Assembly (NCBI GenBank): GCA_021731405.1
Contig: JAKFXN010000005.1
Location: 105,892-169,891 of the forward strand
DNA: 64,000 nt
Direction of reading: 5' to 3'
From: Candidatus Parcubacteria bacterium
GTDB taxonomy: Bacteria; Patescibacteriota; Minisyncoccia; Phycocordibacterales; UBA918
Shown: positions 1-50,594 of the stretch, in pieces
How the letters are laid out: each line of letters opens with the position of its first letter
Numbering within the stretch: position 1 is the stretch's first letter
The notes under the pieces: generated by a model
Seen by the model: the letters and a program-made list of their open reading frames with translations, nothing else
Told to the model about the DNA's origin: nothing
The model's database searches: none
Translations under genes and position numbers: made by a program

Positions 1-3000
1 AACTGGAGAGTTATTTGTGACATCATACAAACGGAAATAGTAGACCGCGTTTACGCGTGCTGCTGCATGTCTAATAGTAAATGAATACTCTTGCGTAGTT
101 TCTGCAAAGTGTACGTGCCCCGTGGCTGCGTTAGGGCCAGTGTTGTGGCGTCCGCACCCAATACCTACCCCCGCCACACAAACATCTCCTCCAGTAAGAA
201 CCTTAGTACTGACTATTTGATTATCAGTCACTACAGCATCTTCGTAACACCAGAGAGAAAGGTCTGTACAGGTGGTTGTTGCAGCAACGTCTATCGGATT
301 AGTGAACGCCACGTCTTCAGAAAACTGTAGTTTAAATTTAATGTCTTCACCCTGTACGTTTCTTCTCTCATTTACATTAATCCGCAATGCAATGGCGTTA
401 CCATTCACTATATTGATAGGGGCAACGTCCTCGTTTGCGAGAGCTGTCAAAGGTGTTTCATTTTCAGAGTCATTGTACCATCGCCAGTTTTGTGTAGCGG
501 GACTAAAGCCAGCCGTCCTGATTTGCGGATAGTTACTATAGGTATCAAGTGGCGAGCCGTCACTATAGACTGCTCTAAAACAATACGTACTTTGTGGCGT
601 TGCACCGTTGTGTTGCAGATACCAATCATATTCAACATCGTCCCCATCATTTACAGGATACGGGTTTACTGCTGAAGGGCTTTCATGAACAAGGACACCA
701 GCTCGATTAGCTATAGAGATAAGGAGTTCTCCTCCGGTTGGAGGGTCGTTTGAAAGCGCTGTCCCGTCAGCAGTTCCAGTTGCTGAAAACCCTCGCCAGA
801 CGGTTCCGCTTGAAGCGTCTCCAACATCAGACCAACTTCCCCCATCTACTGCAGAGCACGTTGAAACACGGGTGGCGTACTGAAGTTTATAATTGAGAAG
901 TCCTGCGGGCATTGTGGCGTTAGCGGTACGAAGAGTCATCCGAATTCTCACCACATCACTCGTCCCAAGGGGTTCATCAGCAATCGTAATAGAAGTATTT
1001 TCTCCTAGGTTTGATGGTCCAGGTGGCCATGGATCAGTTGGGGTAAGGGCATTATTATCTGCGTAGAATCGGTAATAATTTTGTCTAATTGAAAGATCTG
1101 CCACCGGCCACTCGACCAGCTCAACACGGTACTGGAGTGCTGTACCAGTGTTACTTCTCCAAATTTGGTAGGTAGTTGTACTGGTAATAGTAAAACCCGC
1201 CATCGGTCGCGGATAGGTTGTATTGGCTCCTGCACCACTTGAGTTTGCGGAGATAGAGGTATTATTAAGAGCTTCGATTGGCGTAGAGAGTACTACCGAA
1301 AGAGCGAGTGGCGCAGTACCGCCGGTAGTAAGTCCGTTTGAACGTTGTACGACCATCGCTCCCCCACCTGATTCGATGTTTTCTATTACCCACGCCACAG
1401 AAGTTTGCTCAACCGCTACCGTCGCTCCTGATTCAAGCTGGAACGAAACTGCACCAATACTTGAAAGCCACACCTGGTCTCCGAAGTTGACAACGTTAGT
1501 GGTAGCACCAACTCGTCTTTGCGCATGGATAAATGTACGCGCTAAACTATTTACTGCAGTAATAGGTTCTGTCTCTGTGACTCCTGAGGCACTGTAGGTA
1601 TGTGATACTCTTTGCACATTCCAGTTTGGTCCAACAAATTCTACGACCGCATAGCTCACATCAATGGCACTAGCACCGTTGGCAGCTCGCCGTATGATAG
1701 GTGCTTGAAGAGCGGTATTCCACTCAGAAGTAACCTGACTCGCGTAAAAATTTCTTGCTGTATTACGGTTGCTTGAGCCAGTTACAAACACCACCACGTT
1801 ACTGTTATCGCTCACATTTGAAAGTACTGTGCCCGTAGCCACGACCGCTGTCGTATTAAATGCAAGTGTCCCAACTCCACGAACAACCATTTCATTATCT
1901 GTACCAGCGTTTCCTATAAACTCAACAATCTCCCAATCTACCCGGGTGTTGGAAGTAGCAGCGGGGGGTCTGGTAATGGTAAAGCTTGTGCTGATGTTGC
2001 TTGGATTTGAGATGTAAGCCGTAACATCATCAGCGTTTTGCCCGGCGGTGGCTACGTTGTTTCCAGCTCCAGTCTGATGTGAATTTGTGATTCTGACAAA
2101 TGCCCGCGTGCTACTGGCTGGTGCCACATAATCAACTCCGGCAGTGACTGTCGCTGAAGTCCCACTCACCTGCACCGATCCGCGCTGCACTTTAAAATCA
2201 CGTTTTGCAGCAGTGGTAACTTCAGCGTACTGAGAATAAGTGTTAAATGCAGTGCCGTTTGAAGAGGCTCTAAAGCAGTACGTAGTACCAAATGAGGTAA
2301 AACTGGTTGAGGTTAAACTAAACTCGACATCAAGATAGTCTCCAATCGGTATTGTAGTAGTGGAAGTCAACGACTCAGTATCACGAACTCCGCCGTTGGC
2401 GGCAATAAAACTTCCACTACCATTACTTACACCACCATTTGCAATTGAAATGTTGGTGGTTGTCTCACCGTTTGTGAGGAAAGCTGAGTTGTACATGTCC
2501 CAGCCATCTAAAGATGCGTTCACGTCTGTCCATACTGTAGCCATATCACAGGTAGTAATCTTTGGTGCATACTCGACGCGAAAGCGTGTCGGTACACTAG
2601 AAACTGAGCCAGTGTTGGTAATTCCAAGTCGCAGTCTAATCTCTTCATTTTGGGCAAATTCAGTCAAAGGTGTATTTTCGGTTCCTGCTGTTGCGGAAGA
2701 AGCAGTCACTTCAGTGCCGTTGTCAGTGCGCCAGTGGTATCCCAATTGCGTTACTATCGGACCCTGTACCGTAGTCTCACCGCTTATAGTAACCGCGCTT
2801 GAAGGCCCCACACTTGCCCCGCCACTCACGAGCACATCGTCAGCCGGCGAGGTAATTTCCAGATCTATTGTCTCTCCATTTTGAGCAGCATTTGAAACAT
2901 CATATACAACATACAAACAAAGAGCTGAAATAGAGGAGATACTCACGGTGTCTGTAAACACCGCCGTCTCACCCACTCCATCAAAGCCATTTGTGCTTGT

Positions 3001-5601
3001 CGCTCCGTACTGTAGTTCAGTACCACCATATGACACACTGGAGCAATTATATGGAAGTGTAGTATCAAACTCATAGACTAGACGGACATTCTCTATATCA
3101 GTTGCACCGTCAACTGTCCCAAGTTCGCTTATTTCTACAGAGGTTACGTCACGTGTAGTTGCATTCTCAATCACCGCGAAGCCACCGCCGGCGTATACAT
3201 TTGCCTCCAGCACGTCGGCTGTAGCTGTCTGTGTGCCAAAACTTTGGACTGACACGTCAGCCGCAATGGTTGCTTCTGGGTAGTGACTATAGACACTAAG
3301 TGGAGTACCGCTTCGTGTCATTCTAAAACAATATGTTTGACCCTCAGTCGCACTGGTTGACGCCACAATAGAAAACTCTGCCTCTATAAAGGCGTCAATC
3401 GCTAGTGTTACCGAGCCAGTGGTGTTTGTTGTGTCACGTACACCGCCATTGGAGGCCAAAAAAGTGGTTCCGGGTAAATCAGTTATTCCGCCACTTGATG
3501 ATGCAATATTGGTAGTGTTGTTTCCATCAGTTAAATTGGCAGAGTTAGACAATACAAAGTCAGCATCAACTGCCCCTACCGCTTCCCATGATGAAGTATC
3601 TGTACAAGCAGGCGCAGCGAGGCCGTATTCTAGTTGGTAAGTTGATGCAAGAGTTGAGGTTGAGCCCTGATTTGCCACACCAACCCGAATACGCCTCGGT
3701 ACACCAATTGATAAACTATTCAAAGGGGTATTGGGAACTCCAAGCGTCGCGGAAGACGCGGTCACCTCAGTACCATTGTCTGTGCGCCAGTGATATCCAA
3801 ACTGTGTAAGGTTTGGATCCACGATAGTTGTAGTGCCGGCAAGAGCAACGTCAGTATCTGGATAGACAAGAAAGCCACCCGATACGGTTATATCTGTCTC
3901 TGGATCTGCTACTGAAATTTCAATCGTATCACCGTCTCCAGCCGTTACTTCGACATCAAACACAGGGTAAATACACATACTTTGAGTGGGCAAAATAGAG
4001 ACTGGCGCATTGGTAAAACCGGCTACGCCATTGGCGCCTGAGAAGCCGCCACTTACGGTCGAGCCAAACTGCGCCTCACCTCCTGTATAAGATTCACTTA
4101 CACAGTTATAAGGAGCTGAAGTGTCGAATTCGTAAAAAAGTTCAACATTTTTTATATTATTTTGAGCTTGGACGGTTCCACTCTCAGTTATTACGATATT
4201 GCTGACCGTTTGACTTGAAAGCGACTCAAGCATAAATGCGCCCCCGACATAAAATGCATTTGCATCAGTGCGGGTCTGAGCTGTTTGTGTTCCGAGTGTC
4301 GTGAGTCGTATCTCAGGACCTATATCAGCGTTTGTGTCTCCAAAAATATCTTGAGTGCCGACGTTGTTGTACCAACTAGTAAACAAACGGTCATAGGACA
4401 TGATGTTCATATCAACACCATAGAAGTCACCTGCGGCACTATTGAGCGGACCTTGTTCTGCACCCCAACTAGTCATACTGTCAGTAGAACTTCGGTAGTA
4501 TACGTTTGCTGTCGCTGCTGTTCCAATGGTTGTTCTTGCGGTATAGGCTACATAAATATTGCCATTGTTTTGGTCTCTCCCAATTGCCACCTGTAAGAGG
4601 CCTCTCGTGGGATGGTTAGTAATAATATCAGCCGTACTTGACCACGAGCCGCTTGAATAAAGTCTTGTGCGGATGTCGTGGTCAGCAACAGTGAAGGTGT
4701 CATTGTCAGCAGTGTACGCAATGTAGATATCTCCCGTATCAGTATCGATAGTCGCAGCCATTCCAACGTCGTAGGTTGTGTTACGAATAGCTGAAGCATC
4801 TACAATTGTGAATCCAGACCAAATAGAACCATTCCAAGTAGATGAGCGAACCTGACTACCAGTACTGCGGTTTATAAGAAGTATGTTTCCCGCCGAGAGC
4901 GGCATGAGAATGCTCCAGCTATCAGCGTTTCCTTGTGGTGGTGTTCCAACAGCCCCCCAGTTGACTGCTAAGTTACAAGACGAGATACAGGAACGAATAA
5001 CGGTGGCGTTACCATCATCAGCCACAATATATATACGGCCATCAGTTCCTTTGGTAATACTATTTTCGTTTGTCCCAGCCGCATACACAGCGGCTGAACC
5101 AGCTGAAACGTTCACCGCTGTAACCAGAAGAAGTGTGTCGCTCGTAGTATCAAGACGGTTGTAAAAAACGTCGTCATCACCAGTATCAATAGTAGAGATA
5201 TGAATATTGGTACCGGTATCACCTGGAGTCCATTTGTCGTACCACACCGTTATACCAATACAGTCAGTCTGTGTGTCTACGACCACAAAGCTCCCCCACG
5301 TACCGCCACCATTAGTTGTCTTTCGGTAACCACACATTCCGCTACTCGGGGCTGCTCCATAACGGTGAAATTTATACCCGACTTGGTCGTCAATAAAGAC
5401 AGTAGATGCTCCGGACTGAGTGTGCACAGCAGCGGTTGTGTTTGGAGTTGCTTCAATAGTTACTTGAGCCGCCTCTGCTTCATTGGGCCAGAGTAACAAA
5501 ACATTTAAGAGTGTTGTGTTTGACACCTCAGCCAGAAAAGACAGCACTAAAAAGAGTGCTACTATTTTATTACCAATATTAAACAAACCCCGGAAATTCA
5601 T
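1..5601 (-). CDS. Very large secreted repeat protein, partial. The start codon is at 5601-5599 and the 3' end runs off the left window edge. It has a signal peptide and Thr/Ser/Gly-rich propeller-like repeats resembling modules of the giant protein.
   Basis: Manual reverse-complement translation from the ATG at 5601 gives MNFRGLFNIGNKIVALFLVLSFLAEVSNTTLLNVLLLWPNEAEAAQVTIEATPNTTAAVHTQSGAS... with no stop in the first ~250 codons checked. No other minus-strand ORF over 83 aa is listed in 1-5600, which fits one open frame truncated by the window edge. All plus-strand ORFs here look like antisense shadows. Confidence 0.6.
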   Translation of the reverse strand, partial: MNFRGLFNIGNKIVALFLVLSFLAEVSNTTLLNVLLLWPNEAEAAQVTIEATPNTTAAVHTQSGASTVFIDDQVGYKFHRYGAAPSSGMCGYRKTTNGGGTWGSFVVVDTQTDCIGITVWYDKWTPGDTGTNIHISTIDTGDDDVFYNRLDTTSDTLLLVTAVNVSAGSAAVYAAGTNENSITKGTDGRIYIVADDGNATVIRSCISSCNLAVNWGAVGTPPQGNADSWSILMPLSAGNILLINRSTGSQVRSSTWNGSIWSGFTIVDASAIRNTTYDVGMAATIDTDTGDIYIAYTADNDTFTVADHDIRTRLYSSGSWSSTADIITNHPTRGLLQVAIGRDQNNGNIYVAYTARTTIGTAATANVYYRSSTDSMTSWGAEQGPLNSAAGDFYGVDMNIMSYDRLFTSWYNNVGTQDIFGDTNADIGPEIRLTTLGTQTAQTRTDANAFYVGGAFMLESLSSQTVSNIVITESGTVQAQNNIKNVELFYEFDTSAPYNCVSESYTGGEAQFGSTVSGGFSGANGVAGFTNAPVSILPTQSMCIYPVFDVEVTAGDGDTIEISVADPETDITVSGGFLVYPDTDVALAGTTTIVDPNLTQFGYHWRTDNGTEVTASSATLGVPNTPLNSLSIGVPRRIRVGVANQGSTSTLASTYQLEYGLAAPACTDTSSWEAVGAVDADFVLSNSANLTDGNNTTNIASSSGGITDLPGTTFLASNGGVRDTTNTTGSVTLAIDAFIEAEFSIVASTSATEGQTYCFRMTRSGTPLSVYSHYPEATIAADVSVQSFGTQTATADVLEANVYAGGGFAVIENATTRDVTSVEISELGTVDGATDIENVRLVYEFDTTLPYNCSSVSYGGTELQYGATSTNGFDGVGETAVFTDTVSISSISALCLYVVYDVSNAAQNGETIDLEITSPADDVLVSGGASVGPSSAVTISGETTVQGPIVTQLGYHWRTDNGTEVTASSATAGTENTPLTEFAQNEEIRLRLGITNTGSVSSVPTRFRVEYAPKITTCDMATVWTDVNASLDGWDMYNSAFLTNGETTTNISIANGGVSNGSGSFIAANGGVRDTESLTSTTTIPIGDYLDVEFSLTSTSFTSFGTTYCFRASSNGTAFNTYSQYAEVTTAAKRDFKVQRGSVQVSGTSATVTAGVDYVAPASSTRAFVRITNSHQTGAGNNVATAGQNADDVTAYISNPSNISTSFTITRPPAATSNTRVDWEIVEFIGNAGTDNEMVVRGVGTLAFNTTAVVATGTVLSNVSDNSNVVVFVTGSSNRNTARNFYASQVTSEWNTALQAPIIRRAANGASAIDVSYAVVEFVGPNWNVQRVSHTYSASGVTETEPITAVNSLARTFIHAQRRVGATTNVVNFGDQVWLSSIGAVSFQLESGATVAVEQTSVAWVIENIESGGGAMVVQRSNGLTTGGTAPLALSVVLSTPIEALNNTSISANSSGAGANTTYPRPMAGFTITSTTTYQIWRSNTGTALQYRVELVEWPVADLSIRQNYYRFYADNNALTPTDPWPPGPSNLGENTSITIADEPLGTSDVVRIRMTLRTANATMPAGLLNYKLQYATRVSTCSAVDGGSWSDVGDASSGTVWRGFSATGTADGTALSNDPPTGGELLISIANRAGVLVHESPSAVNPYPVNDGDDVEYDWYLQHNGATPQSTYCFRAVYSDGSPLDTYSNYPQIRTAGFSPATQNWRWYNDSENETPLTALANEDVAPINIVNGNAIALRINVNERRNVQGEDIKFKLQFSEDVAFTNPIDVAATTTCTDLSLWCYEDAVVTDNQIVSTKVLTGGDVCVAGVGIGCGRHNTGPNAATGHVHFAETTQEYSFTIRHAAARVNAVYYFRLYDVTNNSPV

Positions 5602-7296: not shown

Positions 7297-8052
7297 CTAA
7301 GCACCGAAGAACGATTTTGCCAGAATAATTGAGAAATCGACAAAGTTCATTTTTCCATCACTATTGAAATCATGGGTCAGGGTTTTACTATTCCAAGCAA
7401 CCATAAAAGCACTGATGTCTCTCAGGGTTACTTTACCGTCACCATCTATGTCTGCAGTAATATTGACTCCTAGGTTGGCAGAAATAGCGCTTGGGTCTTC
7501 ATCTTGGTCATATATGTAAAAACTTTGCTTTGAGGCGCTACCAGTACCAGAAACAGCAACCGGGGTTCCTCTTCCGTCACCAGCCAAGAGCTGGGCTTCG
7601 CGGACAAAAAATTCTGTGTTGCCACTCACTTTCGCTTGAGCTTTAATGGTGGCAATGAGATGTTCTCCCACAAAGCCTCGTCTAAATGTACCTCCGCCGA
7701 GAGTGATGGTTGATCCTTCAACAATGGGTTCTTGTGTCCAAACTGTTAGCACCGACTGTGCTTTGTCCACTGAAACAACCTCTACTTTATCTGGTGAAAA
7801 ATCAATCGTGATATCGATTGCGTTTACAGGAACATGTGCAGAGGCATAAATATCAATTGAAAAGCGCTCTCCTTCCATCACTGCAGTTTGGGACGGCTCT
7901 AATCGAATATAGGACTTGTCAGTAGAGACGACAGACGCACTCAGGACTGCAAATACACCTAGTACCAGTGGAAACATGTACTTCACTGTCAAACCATCCT
8001 GAACTGGTCTTTCAGGCCTAAATATCCTAAAAAGCGCTTTCAAATAGTTCAT
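7297..8052 (-). CDS. Small secreted protein with an N-terminal cohesin-like beta-sandwich and a C-terminal type-I dockerin (two DxDxDG Ca-binding loops).
   Basis: C-terminus DIDGDGKVTLRDISAFMVAWNS...DFNSDGKMNFVDFSIILAKSF matches the duplicated F-hand dockerin pattern. The N-terminal region is paralogous to the cohesin-like domains of 8762-10489, 10493-11569 and 42786-44360. Confidence 0.65.
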   Translation of the reverse strand: MNYLKALFRIFRPERPVQDGLTVKYMFPLVLGVFAVLSASVVSTDKSYIRLEPSQTAVMEGERFSIDIYASAHVPVNAIDITIDFSPDKVEVVSVDKAQSVLTVWTQEPIVEGSTITLGGGTFRRGFVGEHLIATIKAQAKVSGNTEFFVREAQLLAGDGRGTPVAVSGTGSASKQSFYIYDQDEDPSAISANLGVNITADIDGDGKVTLRDISAFMVAWNSKTLTHDFNSDGKMNFVDFSIILAKSFFGA

Positions 8053-8761: not shown

Positions 8762-10489
8762 TTATACCAACTGTTCAACGTCATCAACTTCCTTTTCAAC
8801 CCGTGTTTGCGCTCCTTTAAGAGCGCCGCTGAGTGAGACAAACATATCCTCTTCTGCTTTTGAGAGTTTTTTAGTCTTTTTTGCTTGAGTGAGACGCTCT
8901 TGTTCTTGACCCAAGACCTCATGTAGGTGAGCAAATTCACGCGCCAAAATAACAAGAGCTTCTTGTGATTCGGTAGAAACTCTACCTTTAAACCGGCGCA
9001 TGTATGCAACAAGGAACCACATAGATAAAACAAGTAGTACGAGCATTGCTAGAAGCGGAATTACCACTGACAGAATGTTTATGAGGAACGTTCCTATTTG
9101 GACATATCCAGGTTGCTGGACAGCAATTCGTATTGTCTCAGAAGTCTCTGATTGGGCACCAAACTCATCAATTGCTTTTGCCGTAAGTTCGTAGACACCT
9201 TGTGTGAAGGTGCCTTCAGGAATCAAAGTAAAGACTCCCGAGTCGTCAGCTGTGAGATTGTAGAGAGTCGGCTCAGCTCCAATCTTTTGGACACTCACTT
9301 CTACCTGCGCCCGTGGTCTTGTGAGTCCGCGCACTACTGGAATCACTTCTTCATTTATTTCATTTGGATATTCCGTGAATGTTGGCTTATCAAACGCTGA
9401 AAGTGTCAGTGAGAATGAACTTACGGTACTATTTCCAGCTCTATCGAAGGCCTCTACGATAACTGAATGTAGGCCTGGATCAAGTTCCTTCAGCTCAATT
9501 TTCTGCTCATTTTTTTCATCCAAAAATTCATAGGCTTCTTCATTATCAATTTTTATTGCATATCGGTTCACTCCAGAAGCACTGTCTTTCACTTGTACCA
9601 AAAGAGTCTGTTTTGGATTTGAAAGATCAGCTCCTTCTGGTAAGCTCAAGGCGAGTTCAGAGGGTGCTTCTGTATCTACCGCTAACCGATAGTGACTCAC
9701 TCTACCCCACCCGTCTTCATTTCGAAACTGAAGGTGAAAATATGACTCTCCTTCTGGTAAGTCGTTAAGTGTAATGGTAGAAATTGGTGTCTCGTACACG
9801 CGAGTCGGAACTGAACTTGGTGACTCATCAAGCAGCGTTCGTACTGAGGTTACTCCTGCAGGCAGCGTCCATGACAGTACAGCATTCTTTGTTTTATACC
9901 AACCTTCTCTATCGCTGTGTGTACTTGATTCAATTTGCGGAGCTCCTGGAGTATTTGCCGGAGCCACATATTCAACTACCTCGGGTGTTGGAGAGGTGGA
10001 AGGGGCTTGAATAGTGTACGTGCCACCGTTCATACTAGAGAGCACATTGGTACCCATTCCGTCATTTGCCAGCACTGCTCCTCCAGTCAAAGTAACTCTA
10101 GCAGTGCTGGCATTAGTAGTTCTGAAAGTAATATTAAAAACTGTTCCCGATGAACCGGTGTAGCCAGTTGGAAGCCCTCCACTGAAAGTTACCGTGCCAG
10201 CAGAATTTGAAAAACTAGGTTCTGTCACCCAAAGACTAAAAATGGAGTTAGATCTATCAACAGACACCACTGTGACTTCTTGTGGATTAAATTTTATGGT
10301 TCCTTCAGCAGCATTGATAGATTTTCCAGCAGAGTTTACTACTACTCTGGCAGTAAAGGTTGCCCCGGCAGAATACACACCAGTGGCCGGCGACATAGAC
10401 ATCGTGGCAGCAGACGATACTGCAGGCAGCAGCAAACTTAGAAGGGTGATTCCAAAAAATACGTAGGTGTTGCGGAGGGAAAGTGACAT
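8762..10489 (-). CDS. Anchoring-scaffoldin-like surface protein: signal peptide, cohesin-like domain, Ig-like/FN3-like domains, a C-terminal TM helix and a charged coiled-coil cytoplasmic tail.
   Basis: N-terminus MSLSLRNTYVFFGITLLSLLLPAVSSA then ATMSMSPATGVYSAGATFTARVVV...FSLWVTEPSFSNSAGTVTFSGGLP (cohesin-like). TM LINILSVVIPLLAMLVLLVLSMWFLVAY followed by the basic/acidic tail KKLSKAEED...VEKEVDDVEQLV. Confidence 0.65.
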   Translation of the reverse strand: MSLSLRNTYVFFGITLLSLLLPAVSSAATMSMSPATGVYSAGATFTARVVVNSAGKSINAAEGTIKFNPQEVTVVSVDRSNSIFSLWVTEPSFSNSAGTVTFSGGLPTGYTGSSGTVFNITFRTTNASTARVTLTGGAVLANDGMGTNVLSSMNGGTYTIQAPSTSPTPEVVEYVAPANTPGAPQIESSTHSDREGWYKTKNAVLSWTLPAGVTSVRTLLDESPSSVPTRVYETPISTITLNDLPEGESYFHLQFRNEDGWGRVSHYRLAVDTEAPSELALSLPEGADLSNPKQTLLVQVKDSASGVNRYAIKIDNEEAYEFLDEKNEQKIELKELDPGLHSVIVEAFDRAGNSTVSSFSLTLSAFDKPTFTEYPNEINEEVIPVVRGLTRPRAQVEVSVQKIGAEPTLYNLTADDSGVFTLIPEGTFTQGVYELTAKAIDEFGAQSETSETIRIAVQQPGYVQIGTFLINILSVVIPLLAMLVLLVLSMWFLVAYMRRFKGRVSTESQEALVILAREFAHLHEVLGQEQERLTQAKKTKKLSKAEEDMFVSLSGALKGAQTRVEKEVDDVEQLV

Positions 10490-12799: not shown

Positions 12800-13091
12800 G
12801 TTGCTCTACGTTGTATTAGTTTTTCAGCTTAGATTGACGTCGCGACCGAAAAAACTAAATGAGCAGATACTCATGCGGGCGTCGGGTCTCCACTCCTTTC
12901 GCCTATATGTGCGCTGCAAAACATACCTACTTTGAAACACTCGGCTGAAGTGTCCAGATACAGCTACGCTGCACCTGCAGTAAGACTAATTTCTTACCTC
13001 CTAAGTAAGTACTCTTTCATTGTAACGTGTTGAATTTTTTTATAGGCTGCGTTATACACAAACGAACAGAGGAACGTAGTGACTATTGTGA

Positions 13092-13150
13092 GTTTGTGCA
13101 GCCGCTTAGCTGAGCTGCGACCCCGAAGGGAGCAGTCAGCTGCAGCGGTC
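13092..13150. ncRNA. Repeated intergenic element X, copy 1: hairpin with a GACC-CCGAAGG-G core, then CTGCAGCGGTCTGCCAAAT.
   Basis: CCGCTTAGCTGAGCTGCGACCCCGAAGGGAGCAGTCAGCTGCAGCGGTCTGCCAAATAT. A related sequence occurs at 13194-13258 and 44938-44988. Confidence 0.45.
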
Positions 13151-13193
13151 TGCCAAATATTTGCGTTTAAATATTTAAAGGGTAGTGAGATAC

Positions 13194-13258
13194 TGCAGCC
13201 ACTTAATTGAATTCGACCTTCGGGAGAGAATTCAATTGCAGTGGTCTGTCAAACGGTC
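13194..13258. ncRNA. Repeated intergenic element X, copy 2, with a perfect 10-bp stem around a UUCG-type loop.
   Basis: AATTGAATTC-GACCTTCGGGAGA-GAATTCAATT-GCAGTGGTCTGTCAAA-CGGTCTGACAAATAAT. A partial third repeat GCAGTCTGCCAAAG lies at 13280-13296. Confidence 0.45.
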
Positions 13259-13366
13259 TGACAAATAATAGATAAAGCCGGACAAATATAGCAGTCTGCC
13301 AAAGAAATAATAAAACCTCACCACATGCTGGCAAGGTTTTATAACCCTTAGTAAAATCAATATTAA

Positions 13367-14497
13367 TTATCCGCTCCAATTAAACAGCAAAATAGAAAAG
13401 TCCTCAATACTCACCCTCCCGTTACCATTTATATCCGCAGGAGGATTAGAGTTTCCTCCGTCTGTCTGCCACCAGAAAATCAAAATAGAAAAGTCGATTA
13501 GGTTTACTCGTCCGTCACGATTGAGATCTGAAGGAGTAGTTACCTGTCCATCAACGCCAACAAAAAGTTGTAGGGTGGAACTAAAACTACTTTGTGTAGT
13601 CAATTGTCCGGTCCCCGTAACCGAACGAGCCCGAAGGGTATGCGGAGCAACTGAGAGTGAGGCGGTGTTTAAAGTAAGACTCCAATTTCCCTCCGCGTTT
13701 GCCGTGGTGCGTTCTATAGTTGAGCCTGTATCTATATGTACTTCTATTCCTGCGCTAGGAATAGATTGTCCACTTACAGTCACTATGTCTCCCGGGTTTA
13801 CGTTTTGGTTTGGAACACGAATAGTCGGCGGCAAAATAACACCAGCAATATTTGTAACCGCACCCTGCGTCACATCAAAGGTAGTGTTGAGAGTAATTGA
13901 GCGAGTCCCTGCAACGTCTGTGGCCCAAAAGCCAAGTGAGGCGGTGCCTGGTGAAGCGTCGGTAGTAAAATCAAATCTTCCTGCCCCATTGGCGCGTACA
14001 CTACCGACTGTTTCTGAGTCAAGAATTATATTGATAGTACGGCCAGGGTAGGCGAGGCCCGTGACACTTATGATAGTATCTCCCAGTTCAGTGGTACTTC
14101 CTCCGCTACCACCACTTCCTCCTCCCGAGCTTCCTCCTCCTCCCGAACCAGCTGGTTCAACCTGACAAATTGCTGAACAAAAGTCTCCATTGTCATTATT
14201 ACCATCATCACATTCTTCAGAGAATTGTGTCTGTAAAATTCCGTCCCCGCAATACGGACCAAAATTACAAATAGTGCTGCACTGTCGTCCAACTATAGTT
14301 GTACTATACACACCAGTCTCACCTGGAGCATCACACTGCTCACCATCGTCTACAAGTGCATTACCGCAGATACTTAAACTAAGGGTGGTTGATGCTGTAC
14401 CTGCAAAAAAAGTTTGTGCGAAAGCGACCTCCCCTTGGAGTAGTAGGAGTACAAGGCAAGAAAGTAAATAGAAAGTAAATCTCATAAGTCTATCCAA
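13367..14497 (-). CDS. Secreted dockerin-bearing protein: N-terminal Cys-rich repeats of the Myxococcus-type CGDG...CDDGN...C pattern, a Gly-rich linker, two Ig-like domains and a C-terminal type-I dockerin.
   Basis: YCGDGILQTQFSEECDDGNNDNGDFCSAIC repeat. C-terminus DLNRDGRVNLIDFSILIFWW...DINGNGRVSIEDFSILLFNWSG (two dockerin segments). The C-terminal half is paralogous to that of 45148-47058. It overlaps the upstream gene by 8 nt. Confidence 0.7.
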   Translation of the reverse strand: MDRLMRFTFYLLSCLVLLLLQGEVAFAQTFFAGTASTTLSLSICGNALVDDGEQCDAPGETGVYSTTIVGRQCSTICNFGPYCGDGILQTQFSEECDDGNNDNGDFCSAICQVEPAGSGGGGSSGGGSGGSGGSTTELGDTIISVTGLAYPGRTINIILDSETVGSVRANGAGRFDFTTDASPGTASLGFWATDVAGTRSITLNTTFDVTQGAVTNIAGVILPPTIRVPNQNVNPGDIVTVSGQSIPSAGIEVHIDTGSTIERTTANAEGNWSLTLNTASLSVAPHTLRARSVTGTGQLTTQSSFSSTLQLFVGVDGQVTTPSDLNRDGRVNLIDFSILIFWWQTDGGNSNPPADINGNGRVSIEDFSILLFNWSG

Positions 14498-17510: not shown

Positions 17511-18719
17511 TTATTCATATCTAATCGCATCAAGTGGATTGAGGGTTGAAGCACGTCTGGCTGGGAAAACTCCTGTTAAGTACCCCACTCCAGCTGAGAA
17601 AAGAGCAATGAAGACCAAAAATACAATTGGGAAAGAGAAAAGTGAGACAGATTGTCCACCAAATTGACCCGCCACGATATTCAAAAATAGATTGACAGTA
17701 AGACCTAAGGCAACGCCCATCACAATTCCACTCACCCCACCCATAAAGCCCACCACAATAGACTCAGAAATAAAGAGGTTTTTTACGTCTTTTGGTGAAG
17801 CGCCAATTGTACGCATAATTCCAATTTCTTTTGTTCGTTCAAGGAGTGTAACTGTCATGGTATTAAACATACCAATAGCAGATACAATAAGTGCAATTCC
17901 GCCAAAGGTAGCCAGTACCGCTTGTACGCCTTGGAAAATCTTTGACGCCTGCTCCACAGTCTTTGAAAGTGCGGTTACTCGATAGCCAGCTTCAATAAGG
18001 CGAGCTTCAACAATCGGTAGATTTTCGTTTGAGTTCACACGAACTTGAATACGCTCATATTCTTCAATACCCACGTGATTGCGAAGCTCTGGAAGCATCA
18101 TCATGGCATTAAGAACACCTTCTTCTTTTGTAATACCACGTACGGTGTACTCTTTATCAATTGGAACCTCAACCACTGCGTCAGTCCCATCCTCAGCTGG
18201 TACAAGCAGTCTGAAAGATACTTTTTCGCCAACAAAAGACTCCGCTTCATCAATTCCGAAAAGCTTCAAAACAGCAGGGGAAAGCATTATGCTGTTTGTA
18301 TCACCAGCATCTTCATCAGTAAAAACAGTTCCTTCGGTTGCTGTTACTCCTGCATACCGTAGGTATGGAGGCTCAACACCTTGAATAAAGACGTTTCCGG
18401 TTAAACCTTTATAGGTAACGAGCGCAGGAAAGCGAGCCAATGGTGCAGCATCAAGAACCTCTTCATACTTTTTAAAAGTATCAACTGTTTCAACTGTGAG
18501 TTTGAGGTTTTGTGCACCTGTGGCAGAAACACCAAGTGAGAGAAGTGTCTCTCCAAACACAATCTGCTCAAGAATGATTTTTTGTAGACCAAAGCCGAGT
18601 CCAACCAGCACCACCACCGCTCCAGTTCCCACACCCATACCTAAAATCGTAAGCCACGTACGAAGTGGGTTAGTTTTAAACATTCGAGTTGAGAGTTGGG
18701 CTAGATCTTGAATTCGCAT
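17511..18719 (-). CDS. ABC transporter permease, FtsX/MacB-like, with an N-terminal TM, a large extracytoplasmic domain and a C-terminal 3-TM FtsX domain.
   Basis: 402 aa. N-terminal TM LRTWLTILGMGVGTGAVVVLVGLG, ~230-aa ectodomain, then C-terminal FtsX-like helices (ATFGGIALIVSAIGMFNTMTVTLLERTKEIGIMRTIGAS...). Immediately downstream of the ABC ATPase. Confidence 0.8.
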   Translation of the reverse strand: MRIQDLAQLSTRMFKTNPLRTWLTILGMGVGTGAVVVLVGLGFGLQKIILEQIVFGETLLSLGVSATGAQNLKLTVETVDTFKKYEEVLDAAPLARFPALVTYKGLTGNVFIQGVEPPYLRYAGVTATEGTVFTDEDAGDTNSIMLSPAVLKLFGIDEAESFVGEKVSFRLLVPAEDGTDAVVEVPIDKEYTVRGITKEEGVLNAMMMLPELRNHVGIEEYERIQVRVNSNENLPIVEARLIEAGYRVTALSKTVEQASKIFQGVQAVLATFGGIALIVSAIGMFNTMTVTLLERTKEIGIMRTIGASPKDVKNLFISESIVVGFMGGVSGIVMGVALGLTVNLFLNIVAGQFGGQSVSLFSFPIVFLVFIALFSAGVGYLTGVFPARRASTLNPLDAIRYE

Positions 18720-18797
18720 TAAATGAAATAATGAGCGTAGCGATTATATTGAATTTAGTTCCTAATTTTCTCCATTACTAGAGAAAATTACTGGAAC
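18719..18797. ncRNA. Conserved structured intergenic element, copy A (hairpin-motif family), lying between the ABC ATPase stop and the FtsX start codon.
   Basis: TTAAATGAAATAATGAGCGTAGCGATTATATTGAATTTAGTTCC-TAATTTTCTC-cattacta-GAGAAAATTA-CTGGAAC. The outer stem GTTCC/GGAAC and the 10-bp inner stem are shared with copy B, and the inner stem shows compensatory changes between copies. Confidence 0.5.
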
Positions 18798-18865
18798 GAC
18801 CCAACGCCCCTATTAAATGTAATTGTAACACTTCAAACTCTCAAAGAAACAAGTTTCCCCCGTAA

Positions 18866-20188
18866 CTAACTCTTGTAACTCACATCCACTCCTTGGGCGA
18901 TGATTTTTTCGAAGTAACGTGTAAGATCATCCGCTTCTTTTGGATCTAGTGCGAGTCCACCACCTTTTATACCAAGCATGAGACGTTCATTAAACTGCGC
19001 TTCCTCCACTACGCCAGTCACACGGTCGGCAATCATTTCAACCATGTTGTCATTTTGTTCTTTACTCAATTTCATATGGTAAGAACCCATTAGGTGGTCA
19101 CGTAACCGCTCAGCTAGTTTATGTTGGCTAAAAAAGATATCGTCGTTATCTTTTTTTGCTCTAAAACGCCTAATATCATCTGCTTGATGCATAAGTTTTT
19201 CGGCCACGTGTGCCATCCGCTTGGCTTCTTTTTCTTCAATCTCTACTCCACCTTGCTCAAGCTTGAGTACAAGCGCACGGATAAATGTGTCTTTGTCTAT
19301 TTTGCCTTTGATAAATAGGGCAATAGCATGCTCTAGGCGAATAATTTGGTCATAGGTGTACTCTTGGGTCAGGAAGTTAACCATACTCTTCACGCGAAGC
19401 GTATCAACTGAGTCGTAGGGATACAGACGAGCAAGTTGTTCAAGCTCAGTCACAATAGTCTCACCTTCGCGGACTGGTTTAATTTGTTTTCGCTGTGGGT
19501 TTACCACTTCTCGCACCACAAAGCCGTCTTTGAGATAATACACGCGGTGCGCATAGCTCAAGTGCGCAGCGTTATGAGACACCATAATAATGGTTCGTCT
19601 ATCAAACGTGTTAATTTCGTCAATCTTGTCCATTACCTGCTGCGTAGAAACCGAGTCGAGGTTTCCGGTTGGTTCATCTGCCAAGAGAATTTTTGGGTCG
19701 TTCACCATCGAACGAGCCACCGACACACGCTGCTGCTGTCCTCCAGAAAGCATGGCTGGGATTTTGTGAGATACATGCCCTACCCCAAAGCGATCAAGCA
19801 GTGACTGCGCACGACGTTCGCGTGTCACTCTATCAGCATCACAAAAAATCATTGGGAGCGCGACGTTGTCGAGTACTGAAAGGGAGCCAATCAGGTTGAA
19901 AGACTGAAAAATAATACCCATCACGTACCGTTGAAAATAAACACGTTCACTCGGTGGATATGAATAGATATCGTCTCCACGAATAAGGAGAGTGCCGTCT
20001 CCTGGGGGAAGCGAGCCCTGAATTGAATACATCAAAGTAGACTTTCCTGAACCTGAAGCACCGAAAAGAATGATGTACTCCCCTTCATAGATATCAGTAT
20101 TTACACCCTGAAGGGCTCTAAATTCATTAGATTTGCCTTTGTTGTAGATGATTGAAAGATCACGACAAACAATGAGTGGTTTCGCCAT
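18866..20188 (-). CDS. ABC transporter ATP-binding protein (MacB/LolD/FtsE-like NBD) with an unusual ~200-aa charged helical C-terminal extension.
   Basis: Walker [11 protein letters not shown]-loop, ABC signature LSGGQQQRV, Walker [14 protein letters not shown]-loop VSHN. The C-terminal part beyond the NBD is charged and helical (...[11 protein letters not shown]...[30 protein letters not shown]...) and has no match I recognise. Confidence 0.85.
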
Positions 20189-42785: not shown

Positions 42786-44360
42786 TTACTTCAGAATTGC
42801 CTTTACATCATTGATTTCCTTTTCAATCAAGGTCTCTGAAACTTCGAGTGCTTGATTGAGTCCTTCCACTGCTTCTCGCTCACTTTTTGACAATCGCTTT
42901 CGTTTAGTAATCATGTTTACTTGGTCATAGATTTCATCTCGCAGTGCTGAGAAAATTTTCTCCATTTGATCTTGAACCTCACGTGTTTCTCGACGCAACT
43001 TCTCTTCTTTTATCTTAAGTTGTTTTCTTTCATACCAGATAAATATTGCCATCAAAAGGATAATAACAAAGAGGAAGAAGATGAGTAGGTTGCCGGGAGT
43101 CAAGAACGACCAGAAAGATTCTTCTTCAAGCACCTCAGCTGGTTTTATCCAGCCAGCCGTGATGAGTACCGCCTTGTTACTCTCTCGAATATTTCCAGCC
43201 TTGTCATGTGCAACTACTTTTACCGTGTAGGTGCCATCTTCAAGTTCACCAAGCAAATATCCGAGCAGTGCTTCATCTGGAGTTACTCTAAATGGCTCCT
43301 TGTCTGCAATCGTAAGCTCATAGAAGTCTATGCCTGAAATTTTATCTATCGCTTCAAATACAAGGAGTGGGAATGACGACGGTGTACTGCCAGTTCGTAC
43401 GCCAATTTCAAATGGTTCTGGAGGAATGGTATCAATCTGAAGTTTTCGATTGAGCGTTACTCCCCAACCAACTTGGTTCTTAAATCTAATACTAAGATAC
43501 TGTACTCCATCGACAATGATGTCTTTTGTGATTCTGAATTCATCTACTGGCGGTTCGAGTACTGAATCGGGATTGAGACTCGGATCGTTTTCACTTGAAG
43601 TTGCCATTTCTATTGCAACTGCATTTACGTCAAATGGTAGTGTCCAAGTAAATAGTCCTTCAGTAGTGTTGTACCACACTTCAGGGTCAAGGAAGGCTGG
43701 TGAGCCAACTTCTGGAGCACGTGGCGGATCTCCGAAAATAAGCGCTTCTTCACTATCATCTTCTTCATCGGGCTCTGGCGTATTTGGGGTAGGTGTTGGT
43801 GTCGGAGTTGGGGTAGGTGTTGGTGTCGGAGTCACAGCAGCTCCAATGGTAAAGTTGCTTGGGGAGGAAGTCTGATATACGTCGGTGCCGCGACCGTCTG
43901 CCGCTAGTACTGAAGCAGCACTAAAGCTAACAGCGGCTGTTCCTGCTTTTAATGTTCGAAACGTTACATTGATAAGGTTCGAGGTTGCAGAAAATGGGGC
44001 TGGGCTACCACCTCCGAAGCTTACGGTACCGGCTGTATTAGAAAAGGTTGGCTCTACAGTCCAAAGTGAGAAGGCGGAACCATCTTTTGTGATACTCACA
44101 ACTGAGAGAAGTGTTGGGTCAAACTTGAGAGTAGCCTCAACTGCATTAATGTTTTGACCGGCAGGTAGCACGCGTACCGCAGCGGTAAATGTCTGCCCTC
44201 CAGTATAAGAGCCCGTGCTTGGGTTCAATTGCAAAGTGGCAGCACTCGCAGTAAGTGCGCTCAAGAAAAATAGTACACTTACCGCAAGCAGACACAGAAG
44301 CTTTACAGCCACTTGTTCAACTTTATTATGTAAATGAATGTGTAACATACGTGATTTCAA
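42786..44360 (-). CDS. Anchoring-scaffoldin-like protein: signal, cohesin-like domain, (TP)n linker, Ig-like domains, a C-terminal TM and a coiled-coil cytoplasmic tail. Paralog of 8762-10489.
   Basis: ATLQLNPSTGSYTGGQTFTAAVRVLPAGQNINAVEATLKFDPTLLSVVSITKDGSAFSLWTVEPTFSNTAGTVSFGGGSP then TPTPTPTPTPTPTPNTPEP. TM LIFFLFVIILLMAIFIWY. Tail ...KRKRLSKSEREAVEGLNQALEVSETLIEKEINDVKAILK is conserved with the tail of 8762-10489. Confidence 0.65.
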   Translation of the reverse strand: MKSRMLHIHLHNKVEQVAVKLLCLLAVSVLFFLSALTASAATLQLNPSTGSYTGGQTFTAAVRVLPAGQNINAVEATLKFDPTLLSVVSITKDGSAFSLWTVEPTFSNTAGTVSFGGGSPAPFSATSNLINVTFRTLKAGTAAVSFSAASVLAADGRGTDVYQTSSPSNFTIGAAVTPTPTPTPTPTPTPTPNTPEPDEEDDSEEALIFGDPPRAPEVGSPAFLDPEVWYNTTEGLFTWTLPFDVNAVAIEMATSSENDPSLNPDSVLEPPVDEFRITKDIIVDGVQYLSIRFKNQVGWGVTLNRKLQIDTIPPEPFEIGVRTGSTPSSFPLLVFEAIDKISGIDFYELTIADKEPFRVTPDEALLGYLLGELEDGTYTVKVVAHDKAGNIRESNKAVLITAGWIKPAEVLEEESFWSFLTPGNLLIFFLFVIILLMAIFIWYERKQLKIKEEKLRRETREVQDQMEKIFSALRDEIYDQVNMITKRKRLSKSEREAVEGLNQALEVSETLIEKEINDVKAILK

Positions 44361-44373: not shown

Positions 44374-44838
44374 TTATGCTTGGGTCTTACGTTCTTGTTT
44401 TACTCGTAAGCGCACTCGTTCTTTTTCTGAGGATTTCAGAAGAGGCAAAATGAGTATCAAAACTCCGTTTTTAATTTTCGCTTCTGCTTTTTCTATCTCA
44501 ACACTCTCGGGCAAAATAATGCGACGATAAAAATCTCCCCAAACACACTCCGAAGCGAAGTACGCTCCCTGCTCAGTGCGTTTAGGAAACACGATGTACT
44601 CAGGTCTAATTCTTCTTCCTTCAATGAGCACAATGTCAGCATCACCCTCGATAGAAACGTTGACGTCATTCATATCCGCTCCAGCTGACTGTGCGTAGAT
44701 GACAATTTTATTTTCAGTTTGAAAAACATCAACGTCAAGTTGAGCTACTTTGTCTACCGCGGTTTCTTCGGACTCAGACTGCAAAGAAGACTGCCCAGAA
44801 CGAACACCTCTATTTTTTAGTCTCTGTAGAAAGGACAT
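44374..44838 (-). CDS. Small heat-shock protein of the Hsp20/alpha-crystallin family.
   Basis: 154 aa with an alpha-crystallin-domain-like core (...VNVSIEGDADIVLIEGRR...) and a C-terminal IKNGVLILILP. A TATAAT-like box sits just upstream of the ATG on the minus strand. Confidence 0.8.
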   Translation of the reverse strand: MSFLQRLKNRGVRSGQSSLQSESEETAVDKVAQLDVDVFQTENKIVIYAQSAGADMNDVNVSIEGDADIVLIEGRRIRPEYIVFPKRTEQGAYFASECVWGDFYRRIILPESVEIEKAEAKIKNGVLILILPLLKSSEKERVRLRVKQERKTQA

Positions 44839-44937
44839 ACACTAGTATTATAGTATTTTTTATTATCTATTTGTGATGTTACCCACACAAGTAGAAATAA
44901 GAAGAAGCAAAGCTTCTACTATATTTTACTTGTGCAG

Positions 44938-44988
44938 GCGCTTAGCCATGATTCGACCCCGCAGGGAGAATCTGGCTGCAGCGAGCTG
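44938..44988. ncRNA. Repeated intergenic element X, copy 3.
   Basis: GCGCTTAGCCATGATTCGACCCCGCAGGGAGAATCTGGCTGCAGCGAGCTGCCAAATGAG. It shares GCTTAGC, the CGACC-hairpin-AG core and CTGCAGCGxxCTGCCAAAT with copy 1. Confidence 0.45.
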
Positions 44989-45162
44989 CCAAATGAGTAA
45001 AGAAGCATAGTGAAGTCTATATCTTTATCCAGTCCAGTTTAAATGAGTAGACGAGCGTAGCGACTACTACGAATTTAGTTCCCGATTTGTCCTCCTAAGG
45101 CAAATCGCTGGAACTCGAAGTAAAGAAGCATAGTGAAGTCTATATCTTTATCCTGTCCAGTT
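44987..45162. repeat. Two direct repeats of about 44 bp flanking element B: R1 at 44987-45039 and R2 at 45120-45162. R2 includes the last four codons and the stop of the dockerin gene 45148-47058.
   Basis: GTAAAGAAGCATAGTGAAGTCTATATCTTTATCC(A/T)GTCCAGTT occurs twice, about 133 bp apart, with the hairpin element in between. Confidence 0.6.
45043..45118. ncRNA. Conserved structured intergenic element, copy B (same family as 18719-18797).
   Basis: TTAAATGAGTAGACGAGCGTAGCGACTACTACGAATTTAGTTCC-CGATTTGTCC-tcctaa-GGCAAATCG-CTGGAAC. The inner stem sequence differs from copy A but complementarity is preserved. Confidence 0.5.
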
Positions 45163-47058: not shown

Positions 47059-47125
47059 CTTATCTATAAGTATACCCCGCACAAATACAAACAATATGTC
47101 TGGTCGTGAACAACTTGTAACTCTT

Positions 47126-48918: not shown

Positions 48919-49722
48919 CTATTTCACACAGCGAAAACCAACCGCTGCTCCACTAAAGTTTGGGGGTGTTTGCGCATGTACCGTATAGGTACCAGCATCA
49001 TCTTTACTGCCATAAAATCCACCACGAATAATTCCAAAAGCACCTGTTCCACTTGTCCAAAAATAATCCCCTTTTATTTCAGTGCTTGTCTCTTCTTGTG
49101 TGATGGTCGCCATTCCCGAACTATCAACTTGGCTCACATATCCAGTCCCTGGTAACTCTCTTCCCTGATACACCCCCTCAATGACATCATCGCTCACCCA
49201 CTCCCACACATTACCAACCGTATCTTTTACGCGAGCGGCGGAAATACATGTTTCATACTCACCAGCTGCGCTAATGTCGCCACTTGCAATATTACAACTA
49301 TCTTTTGTCGTTCCGAGGGAAAATTGATACCACTCACTCGCTGAGGGAAGTCGTTTGCCTGCTCTCGTACAAAGTATGGCTGCTTGCTCTCTGTCAACAA
49401 ACCGCCATGGTTCATTACCCACCTCACTAGTAGGTACACAATCACTTTTTGAGAGATTTATTTCTGTATCATACTGACTTGAAGGATTGACGACGGTACA
49501 ATCTTCTTGAACTGATGCTTCAAACTCATCTACGCACGTAAATGTCAGAGCCCCGGATACCGGTATCATCCCCGCAGGACAAATTTCTGTCTGTGTTCCA
49601 ATGAGCGAGGCTAGCATAGTACCCCCTTTTCCAGTCAATGTGTCAGTAGCATCAATACTAAAAGTCGTAAGAATAAGGGCTACAAGAACCCCGCCACCAA
49701 TTGTGAAGACCTTCTTATACAT
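48919..49722 (-). CDS. Secreted formylglycine-generating-enzyme (FGE)/SUMF1-family domain protein, paralog 1 of 3.
   Basis: N-terminal TM/signal. C-terminal ...DYFWTSGTGAFGIIRGGFYGS...GFRCVK is characteristic of the FGE-sulfatase (SUMF1/EgtB/PvdO) fold. Multiple conserved Cys. Confidence 0.7.
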   Translation of the reverse strand: MYKKVFTIGGGVLVALILTTFSIDATDTLTGKGGTMLASLIGTQTEICPAGMIPVSGALTFTCVDEFEASVQEDCTVVNPSSQYDTEINLSKSDCVPTSEVGNEPWRFVDREQAAILCTRAGKRLPSASEWYQFSLGTTKDSCNIASGDISAAGEYETCISAARVKDTVGNVWEWVSDDVIEGVYQGRELPGTGYVSQVDSSGMATITQEETSTEIKGDYFWTSGTGAFGIIRGGFYGSKDDAGTYTVHAQTPPNFSGAAVGFRCVK

Positions 49723-49760
49723 ATATATGTATATTGTACCGCAAAGCTGCAGCGAAACCT

Positions 49761-50579: not shown

Positions 50580-50594
50580 ACCAATAAGTATACG

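Follow-up and report, generated by a model that had tools for sequence, protein, structure and literature searches.

Repetitive extragenic palindromes (REP) and bacterial interspersed mosaic elements (BIME) of Enterobacteria and Pseudomonas are mobilised by RAYT/TnpA-REP, while the Correia/NEMIS elements of Neisseria and the RUP/BOX elements of Streptococcus are miniature inverted-repeat transposable elements (MITEs) that are co-transcribed and processed, can be cleaved by RNase III, and can alter expression. The Patescibacteria (candidate phyla radiation) represent a large, almost uncultured share of bacterial diversity, and to our knowledge next to nothing is known of their non-coding DNA or of the organisation of their gene expression. 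A 64-kb stretch of a Candidatus Parcubacteria contig (the window) contains a short element, E, present there in two canonical copies, A and B. E represents a previously undescribed family in Paceibacteria-type Patescibacteria, non-coding, non-autonomous and approximately 80-110 bp long. It is tentatively read, with less than even confidence, as a DNA-level structured boundary element of the REP/MITE kind that is co-transcribed as part of untranslated regions (UTRs).

E is written here in gene-sense orientation, i.e. that of the window minus strand. A 30-nt core was matched twice in the window, compared to 0.00 matches expected from 100 shuffles. Copies A (18720-18797) and B (45040-45118) have the same orientation and all genes flanking them are on the minus strand, so the plus-strand text in which an earlier note had described the pair is antisense to these genes. 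That note had placed copy A at the FtsX start codon and copy B 3' of a dockerin gene, and both positions were confirmed, the former gene being that of a MacB/FtsX-type permease. Alignment of A with B likewise reproduced the shared block and the inner stems that differ in sequence yet remain complementary, and the hairpin closed by GTTCC/GGAAC folds as claimed (-23.6 and -23.8 kcal/mol; z = -4.4 and -2.1). This covarying hairpin, taken in the note as the only one in each copy, is here termed H2; the shared 5' part proved to be a second hairpin, H1, with four covarying pairs and an invariant apex. In gene sense, H2 is followed directly by H1. Copy A and its surroundings comprise the following features:

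17511-18719, minus strand: MacB/FtsX-type permease gene (ftsX).
18717-18719, minus strand: ATG of ftsX (CAT on the plus strand), abutting H1 directly.
18720-18757, minus strand: H1 of copy A, outer stem TAAAT/ATTTA, inner stem AATA/TATT, TC/TC tandem mismatch (GA/GA on the plus strand), 16-nt apical block TAATCGCTACGCTCAT; its final base directly precedes the ftsX ATG.
18758-18797, minus strand: H2 of copy A, outer stem GTTCC/GGAAC with a bulged AG, 10-bp inner stem TAATTTTCTC/GAGAAAATTA, loop TAGTAATG.
18816-18844, minus strand: promoter-like region, TTGAGA-17-TACATT with an overlapping TGtTACAAT; putative promoter.
18866-20188, minus strand: ABC ATPase gene, on the other side of copy A.

Copy B is located in a more complex setting, between a dockerin-domain gene and a gene for Hsp20:

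45148-47211, minus strand: dockerin-domain gene; copy B lies 33 nt after its stop codon.
45119-45165, minus strand: direct repeat, copy 1, the true 3' end of the dockerin gene (…AAC TGG ACA GGA TAA) with 29 nt of 3' UTR.
45078-45118, minus strand: H2 of copy B, including a subfamily-specific TCGA in front, inner stem CGATTTGCC/GGACAAATCG, loop TTAGGA.
45040-45077, minus strand: H1 of copy B, inner stem GTAG/CTAC, apical block TAGTCGCTACGCTCGT.
44996-45042, minus strand: direct repeat, copy 2, right after copy B, a duplicated gene end (AAC TGG ACT GGA TAA…).
44920-44996, minus strand: hairpin of a second kind (module 2), apex CTCCCTGCGGGGTCGAA, between the repeat of copy B and a terminator-like hairpin.
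44374-44838, minus strand: Hsp20 gene, the next gene after copy B, 201 nt away.

The direct repeat flanking copy B (44-47 nt, 96% identical) holds the last codons and the stop codon of the dockerin gene, and its score of 41 was reached in 0 of 200 shuffles. Downstream of copy B follow repeat copy 2, the module-2 hairpin, the terminator-like hairpin (44903-44917) and the promoter region of the Hsp20 gene. Given its position after the dockerin stop codon, with the terminator-like hairpin beyond it, copy B is therefore 3'-UTR material and not a leader.

To establish the extent of the family, representative genomes were scanned with the pattern GAGCGTAGCGA-N7-GAATTTAG. The scan yielded 42 loci, 38 of them with the full element, and all 38 belonged to metagenome-assembled genomes (MAGs) of Patescibacteria labelled Kaiserbacteria, Paceibacteria/Paceibacterota, Nomurabacteria, 'Saccharibacteria', Elulimicrobium and similar (individual loci, from this and other searches, are cited below by L numbers). 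Doubt attaches to the name 'Saccharibacteria', since L018 bears it yet encodes an FtsX 91% identical to that of the window (95% for L041, a Kaiserbacteria locus). Further, more diverged copies were found in metagenomes with a looser pattern, and a total of 62 distinct copies, all from Patescibacteria MAGs or metagenomes, were aligned (alignment A2). A covariance model (R1), the kind of model that had been proposed as a check, was built and run on the window, where it recovered copy A (94 bits, E-value 1.3e-18), copy B (92.4 bits, E-value 2.8e-18) and a third, degenerate copy:

13057-13138, minus strand: degenerate H1, 31.9-32.6 bits (E-value 5.8e-5 over the whole window), reading AAAC-TC-ACAA-TAGTCACTACGTTCCT-CTGT-TC-GTTT, with a module-2 hairpin in the place of H2.

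No Rfam family accounts for E, in line with the earlier note, which had not recognised it as a known RNA family. At gathering thresholds Rfam 15 gave zero matches in the window, and near copy A a search at E-values up to 10 returned only a plant microRNA model (14.8 bits, compared to a gathering score of 122). The first 18 loci, nearly all of them E-bearing, had no match, and 16 further E-bearing loci contained only five tRNA genes (L001, L003), none overlapping E. No tRNA or tRNA-like structure was detected by ARAGORN in the window or in 24 loci. A phage or plasmid origin was also rejected: all 40 pattern matches in IMG/VR were chance matches inside coding sequence, and blastn against plasmids and phages gave zero matches. 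In full-text literature no description of such an element was found, and a paper checked for it (10.64898/2026.09.15.751765) does not mention Patescibacteria.

Across the 62 copies, H2 (A2 columns 16-59) consists of GTTCC, a bulged AG, a variable stem of about 10 bp, a YTAGGRR loop that frequently reads AGGA or AGGAGG, the return stem and GGAAC. H1 consists of TAAAT, an invariant TC, N4, the 16-nt block TARTCGCTACGCTCRT, N4' (complementary to N4), TC and ATTTA. Its 38 nt (columns 60-97) contain zero indels in 62 copies, and its apical block is invariant and non-palindromic, with two R positions that co-vary (A/A in 20 copies, G/G in 28). In the alignment 93.1% of cells fall in standard pairs, compared to 74.6% in shuffles, and 19 of 24 pairs (260 cells) have changed on both sides; none of 500 shuffles reached any of these measures, and sliding the partner strand by 1-3 columns left only 25-56% pairing. 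Compensated pairs were also observed between orthologues (two in H1 for L032/L176, one in H2 for L019/L021, two in H2 for L005/L024). The covariation first proposed from two copies is therefore general and holds for both hairpins, and the possibility that further copies and covariation support would be lacking did not materialise.

These numbers leave a practically negligible probability that E is a chance likeness, an ordinary intrinsic terminator or a REP-like palindrome with no conserved structure. Intergenic hairpins are common and H2 alone resembles a plain palindrome, but zero core matches were expected, the covariation is far above the shuffled and slid controls, neither hairpin is followed by the T-run seen at canonical terminators elsewhere in the window, and the apical block is not palindromic. 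A promoter and a small open reading frame (ORF) are likewise among the less likely readings. The positions of a putative sigma-70 -10 box in the 3' part of H1 are, on inspection of the alignment, variable N4' bases or lack the A at position 2, and an ECF-like (extracytoplasmic function sigma factor) reading, GGAAC-N15-CGCTA, would leave the covarying N4/N4' pairs unexplained. In 60 of 62 copies one frame stays open throughout H1, but it has no conserved start, shifts through H2 and ends variably. Two further candidates for the apex were rejected. Matches for pairing with a trans-acting RNA (8-11-mers, up to two mismatches) numbered 20, compared to 9.8 expected, and all appeared incidental; for a pseudoknot between the 5' flank and the H1 apex, the mean longest complementarity was 4.94, compared to 4.80 in shuffles, with 6-8 nt only in the ftsX subfamily.

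The pairs were also compared between strands. Wobble pairs are rare: 1362 cells are Watson-Crick, 23 are G-U in gene sense and 37 are A-C, i.e. G-U on the other strand. H2 showed no strand preference in this respect. In H1, wobble-only cells numbered 14 on the window plus strand compared to 3 on the gene-sense strand; TCATTCA variants (columns 61/96) account for 11 of the 14, and most of these come from loci whose mRNA strand is not the plus strand. The plus strand also gives the more stable H1 fold in 51 of 62 copies under RNA parameters and in 55 of 62 under DNA parameters; in gene sense H1 is weak (mean -2.8 kcal/mol). Read on the plus strand, the invariant TC/TC is a tandem G.A mismatch with Y-GA-R as its context and the apex is GA-GCGTAGC-GA; 60 of 62 copies have a purine:pyrimidine combination at pair 67/90. 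Sheared G.A pairs in tandem and mini-hairpins with a GNA cap are unusually stable, particularly as DNA. An alternative view of the 16-nt loop is that of a continued helix of A:T, Y.Y, G.A, A.G, G:C and C:G capped by GCGTAGC. This is the register in which a variant of H1, termed H1b, is fully Watson-Crick, the 16-nt block being replaced in the same register by the perfect mini-hairpin TATGCCCTTTGGGCAT.

H1 variants that keep the architecture occur in L034 (2054-2143), L018 (1067-1157, inverted), L033 (3335-3425) and L029 (about 2950-3048), in which the 16-nt block has given way to a perfect mini-hairpin or a different hairpin, or is split by a 26-nt hairpin insertion.

Comparison of the ATPase-ftsX operon among relatives revealed gain and loss of E. 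E is present before ftsX in the window, L018, L041 and L123, and missing in L020, L203/L204 and L205, though the FtsX proteins are 86-87% identical. In loci devoid of E, 7-9 nt separate a -10 box from the ATG (TCATAAT-9-ATG, TGCAATAAT-7-ATG, TGTCATACT-8-ATG). In L020, E instead immediately precedes the ATPase gene of this operon, a position at which the window reads CATAAT, 6 nt and ATG. Both gene starts thus have occupied and empty orthologous sites, as do mobile elements. In occupied loci a TACAAT box lies 24 nt upstream of H2 (18822-18827 in the window), so that E separates the ATG from what appears to be the former leaderless promoter; L018 and L041 still have an ATG after this box. By this comparison of occupied and empty loci, copy A is best read as an insert that parts the ftsX -10 box from the ATG, common to close relatives and missing from slightly more distant ones. 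Copy A had been described as filling the spacer between the ATPase and permease genes, a description that does not suffice since relatives devoid of E have equally long spacers. Of the two alternatives offered in the earlier note, a structured mobile mini-element is the one that fits best, in view of the occupied and empty sites, the shifted position in L020, and the arrays, flanking duplications and mosaics described below.

The -10 box upstream of copy A is kept in the orthologous L018 and L041 and in L198. Because it is conserved in four orthologous or related loci, 24 nt from the element, copy A is almost certainly transcribed as the 5' leader of ftsX, and it is therefore likely to influence ftsX expression to some degree. 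At most window genes a TAnAAT-type -10 box precedes the ATG by 6-10 nt and a Shine-Dalgarno sequence is missing (e.g. 59136, 49722, 48892, 44838, 21748, 20188, 50579), and the source organism appears to use mainly leaderless mRNAs.

E is always intergenic. Its orientation relative to the nearest ORFs is +/+ in 18 loci, -/- in 13, -/+ in 12 and +/- in 10, and the E strand has positive GC skew in 37 of 62; neither the direction of transcription nor that of replication therefore sets the orientation. Its ends are not equivalent. An ORF boundary lies no more than 20 nt from the H1 end in 29 of 59 loci (14 co-oriented starts and 15 convergent stops, the convergent stop codon often being the TCA or TTA inside TCATTTA read on the other strand), while for the H2 end this holds in 1 of 56 loci, the median distance there being 192 nt. 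On the H1 side, the neighbouring gene has the orientation of E in 33 loci and lies on the opposite strand in 26. Genes that start beside H1 are unrelated housekeeping genes (ftsX, rpsS, rpsN, recR, efp, truB, clpP, pilB, topA and that of an ABC ATPase), and the distance to the ATG is 0-6 nt for ftsX, rpsS, recR, rpsN, efp, pilB, the ABC ATPase gene and an unnamed gene in L015.

A position directly before the ATG in copy A and nine other independent gene contexts is consistent with a cis-acting 5'-UTR or intercistronic RNA that would control downstream translation, through masking of the start or through the Shine-Dalgarno-like YTAGGRR loop of H2. Such a role would also suit the conserved -10 box upstream of copy A, the frequent AGGA/AGGAGG in that loop, and covariation and conservation like those of riboswitch-type leaders. 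It is nevertheless unlikely: the downstream genes have no common function, the H1-side gene is as often as 26 times in 59 on the opposite strand, tandem arrays exist, and copy B lies far from the Hsp20 gene in a 3' UTR, with a terminator-like hairpin in between. The intercistronic translational control suggested for copy A in the earlier note thus fails as a general reading, given the mixed orientations, the 15 loci that abut a convergent stop, and an H1 signal that favours the strand antisense to ftsX.

The polarity toward ORF starts and stops alike is instead what would be expected of an RNA processing or punctuation mark, in which an endoribonuclease would cut transcribed H1 (with H2), in either orientation, at its ORF-facing foot. 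The products would be mRNAs that start at or within a few nucleotides of the AUG, and hence leaderless, or that end at the stop codon. This explanation is possible but doubtful. The ATG distances of 0-6 nt for eight genes, the leaderless look of the window genes with no Shine-Dalgarno sequence, the presence of E inside operons before internal cistrons (ATPase-ftsX) and directly before rpsS and rpsN, and strong sequence conservation in place all argue for it. Against it, the ATG distance varies from 0 to 21 nt, a separate -10 box lies between E and the ATG in L019/L021, L001, L011 and L012, about half of the copies are away from any ORF boundary, and H1 is weak in gene sense, with wobble and mismatch patterns that favour the other strand even where it is not the mRNA strand. 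It is rather unlikely, more so than cleavage in itself, that E serves as a bacterial mRNA punctuation signal which frees internal or promoter-distal cistrons (ftsX, rpsS, rpsN, recR, efp and others) as 5'-AUG mRNAs. Removal at the RNA level would allow E to spread to ORF boundaries in an intron-like manner, leaving the gene alive.

Independence of orientation from the neighbours also brings to mind small-RNA (sRNA) genes, 'sibling' sRNAs transcribed from a promoter on the H2 side, with the H1 apex as a seed or protein-binding site. Spare non-coding DNA is always found on the H2 side and none is needed on the H1 side, and low copy number, wide conservation, tandem copies and compensatory evolution would fit as well. 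However, TAnnnT boxes are scattered, with no consistent -10 box at a fixed distance from H2, no terminator follows H1, and the better-folding strand of H1 is the opposite one, for which a promoter would fall inside the neighbouring ORF. Independent sRNA genes are accordingly judged improbable, slightly more so than translational control.

Thirteen orthologous pairs were examined for conservation in place. The identity of E was 0.76-1.00 in 12 of the 13 and 0.69 in L031/L103, the most diverged pair, compared to 0.47-0.80 in the 100 nt upstream and 0.53-0.83 in the 150 nt downstream, which are mostly coding. In L018 and L041, E is 100% identical while the adjoining coding DNA is 81% identical. 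E is clearly under purifying selection in place.

Arrays and rearrangements of E were found at several loci. Tandem arrays occur in L012, L033, L002, L022 and L034. L012 holds three or more copies with 148- and 83-nt periods; L033 holds three, the first two each followed by a further copy of the last codons of the upstream gene, AAYTGGACNGGNTAR, an arrangement equivalent to the repeat of the gene 3' end beside copy B. An inverted variant is present in L018. Long flanking duplications were found at window copy B, L033, L011 and L012; significant flanking repeats, confined to a few loci, are irregular in length (8-47 nt). Modules H2 and H1 also occur apart or joined with other modules, and module 2 takes the place of H2 next to H1 in L022 and at window 13057-13160. 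Arrays, duplications and module swaps are the behaviour of a modular, recombination-prone repeat.

Within L012 (6260-6980) and L033 (3208-3580), every array copy is followed by another copy of the upstream gene 3' end, and the five differences among the end copies of L033 and the window (AAYTGGACNGGNTAR, encoding NWTG*) are all synonymous or stop-to-stop. Module 2 is itself a second family of long covarying hairpins (window 44920-44996, 13091-13160 and 13186-13270, minus strand; L022, L023, L041, L164) with a conserved apex, CTCCCTKCGGGGTCGAA, and a conserved base, TGGCAG…CTGCAYAAGTAAAATATAGT; it is often found beside E and has no Rfam match.

Under the tentatively favoured reading, the hairpins of E, above all H1 on the window plus strand, would be recognised as folded DNA, either as an extruded hairpin or as a single strand, by a putative trans-acting protein. 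E would be rarely mobile and prone to recombination; it would have landed at ORF edges with its H1 end facing the ORF and would then have been kept by purifying selection. Copy A would have entered a once leaderless ftsX between its -10 box and its ATG and would now form the 5' leader of this gene, and copy B would have come to lie in the 3' UTR of the dockerin gene, beside a duplicate of that gene's 3' end. Recognition at the DNA level would account for the orientation independence and the near absence of wobble pairs, for the strand bias of H1 even where that strand is not transcribed, and for arrays, duplications, mosaics, gain and loss.

Several observations weigh against this reading, which poorly explains conservation in place and the position 0-6 nt from the ATG. 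In at least eight independent gene contexts that spacing leaves no room for a promoter, so E must be in the mRNA and compatible with translation. The excess of E identity over flank identity in orthologous pairs is more than selfish DNA predicts and points to a host function. Copies within a genome are as unlike as copies between genomes, i.e. there is no sign of recent bursts, and copy number is low, with 1-3 exact-pattern matches per representative genome, 3 in a 528-kb contig, and 2 canonical copies and 1 degenerate copy (model R1) in the 64-kb window. Pfam scans of the 27 window proteins revealed no transposase or recombinase, and tblastn with an IS200 TnpA query revealed no IS200-like gene in E-bearing loci; specifically, no RAYT gene is present in the 64-kb window and no IS200-like match in the E-bearing 8-kb loci. 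The ends of E (GTTCCAG… and …TCATTTA) are non-complementary in 62 of 62 copies, i.e. there are no terminal inverted repeats, and there is no regular short target duplication, TTTA being upstream in 24 of 62 copies compared to 18 in shuffles. No single model fits all observations. The readings may combine: E may spread as DNA and be tolerated, then kept, because it is handled at the RNA level.

Other features of the window and of E-bearing loci were also noted. Dockerin/cohesin-domain proteins form a cluster (7297-8052, 8762-10489, 13367-14497, 42786-44360, 45148-47211), and LFNW[ST]G* closes both dockerin proteins for which the 3' end was inspected (13367-14497 and 45148-47211), with E or module 2 right after. 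The dockerin gene at 13367-14497 is followed by a 567-nt gene-free stretch (12800-13366) in which the degenerate H1 is accompanied by two module-2 hairpins, by a TACAAT box near 13018 and by a hairpin with a T-run near 12850; this stretch may encode an unannotated RNA. A single ORF of 6967 amino acids (21769-42672, minus strand) with internal repeats of about 800-4400 nt encodes a giant surface-type protein. Genes for a Y-family polymerase (IMS) and an S24 peptidase (UmuD-like) are located approximately 1.8 kb apart with a chitinase-family (GH18) gene between them, and three tandem FGE-sulfatase-domain paralogues and a sortase gene are also present. The coordinates of these genes, apart from the GH18 gene, are:

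54452-55717, 57567-58046, 48919-51410 and 59157-59825: IMS, S24, FGE-sulfatase and sortase genes.

Before rpsS in L032/L176, a conserved stretch of about 150 nt lies approximately 60-230 nt upstream of E, after a TTGACT-type promoter; it contains complementary segments (GGTTCCAACCTC… GAAGTTGGGAACCTCT…AGAGGTTC) and has no Rfam match.

E provides a testable object, a deeply conserved 80-nt structure of which one end marks ORF starts and stops in apparently leaderless genomes. An action of E on DNA would point to a new recombinase or nuclease, specific for structure, in minimal genomes; an action on RNA would reveal the way in which internal cistrons are expressed independently of a Shine-Dalgarno sequence. 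E can also serve as a useful marker, and it is a candidate for a new family in Rfam or among repeats, for which alignment A2 and model R1 can seed searches.

Comparison with described systems places E nearest to bacterial repeats. REP/BIME are, like E, short, non-coding, imperfect palindromes, intergenic at gene ends and co-transcribed, and occur singly, clustered or in mosaics; REP/BIME are recognised as a folded single strand. E differs in its two different hairpins and invariant non-palindromic 16-nt apex, in its few copies per genome rather than tens to hundreds, in a core found across Kaiserbacteria, Nomurabacteria, Paceibacteria and others rather than being species-specific, and in one defined end that faces ORF boundaries, with no RAYT found in the window or the 8-kb loci. 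MITEs such as Correia/NEMIS and RUP/BOX (about 100-150 bp) share with E a non-autonomous nature, a location near gene starts and ends and the formation of mRNA hairpins, but E has neither terminal inverted repeats nor a regular short target duplication, its flanking duplications being of irregular length. Palindrome-associated transposable elements (PATEs) derived from IS200/IS605 resemble E in the absence of terminal inverted repeats, in subterminal hairpins and in strand-specific structure; in E, however, the hairpins are dissimilar to each other, no TnpA/TnpB is nearby in the window or in E-bearing loci, and orientation is not tied to GC skew.

Integron attC sites also keep structure above sequence, with bulged bases and a strand-specific DNA fold, and lie directly after (often overlapping) a stop codon, before the next ORF. 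The attC core RYYYAAC … GTTRRRY is not found in E, where H2 reads GTTCCAG … GGAAC, of reversed polarity and with CCA in place of RRR; attC forms a single long bulged hairpin whereas E adds a second with an invariant apex, and E is found beside housekeeping genes, not cassettes. Mitochondrial tRNA punctuation and the RNase III sites of phage T7 early genes offer a functional analogy only, that of structured RNA abutting start and stop codons in a system that translates leaderless mRNAs, as the setting of E appears to do. E has no tRNA-like fold, its spacing to the ATG is not constant, and its cleavage is only proposed. As regards intrinsic terminators, TAAATTC comes after H2 and the neighbouring ORF after H1, and a scan revealed incidental sites only; as regards riboswitch-like leaders, there is no constant orientation, 33 of 59 H1-side genes being co-oriented and 26 opposite. 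Compensatory changes beyond chance, found also within orthologous loci, are those of a structured element under selection. E therefore resembles REP/BIME and co-transcribed MITEs in kind but not in the features that define them, and is set apart by its unlike hairpins, its invariant irregular apex, its conservation across many genera and its polar preference for ORF boundaries.

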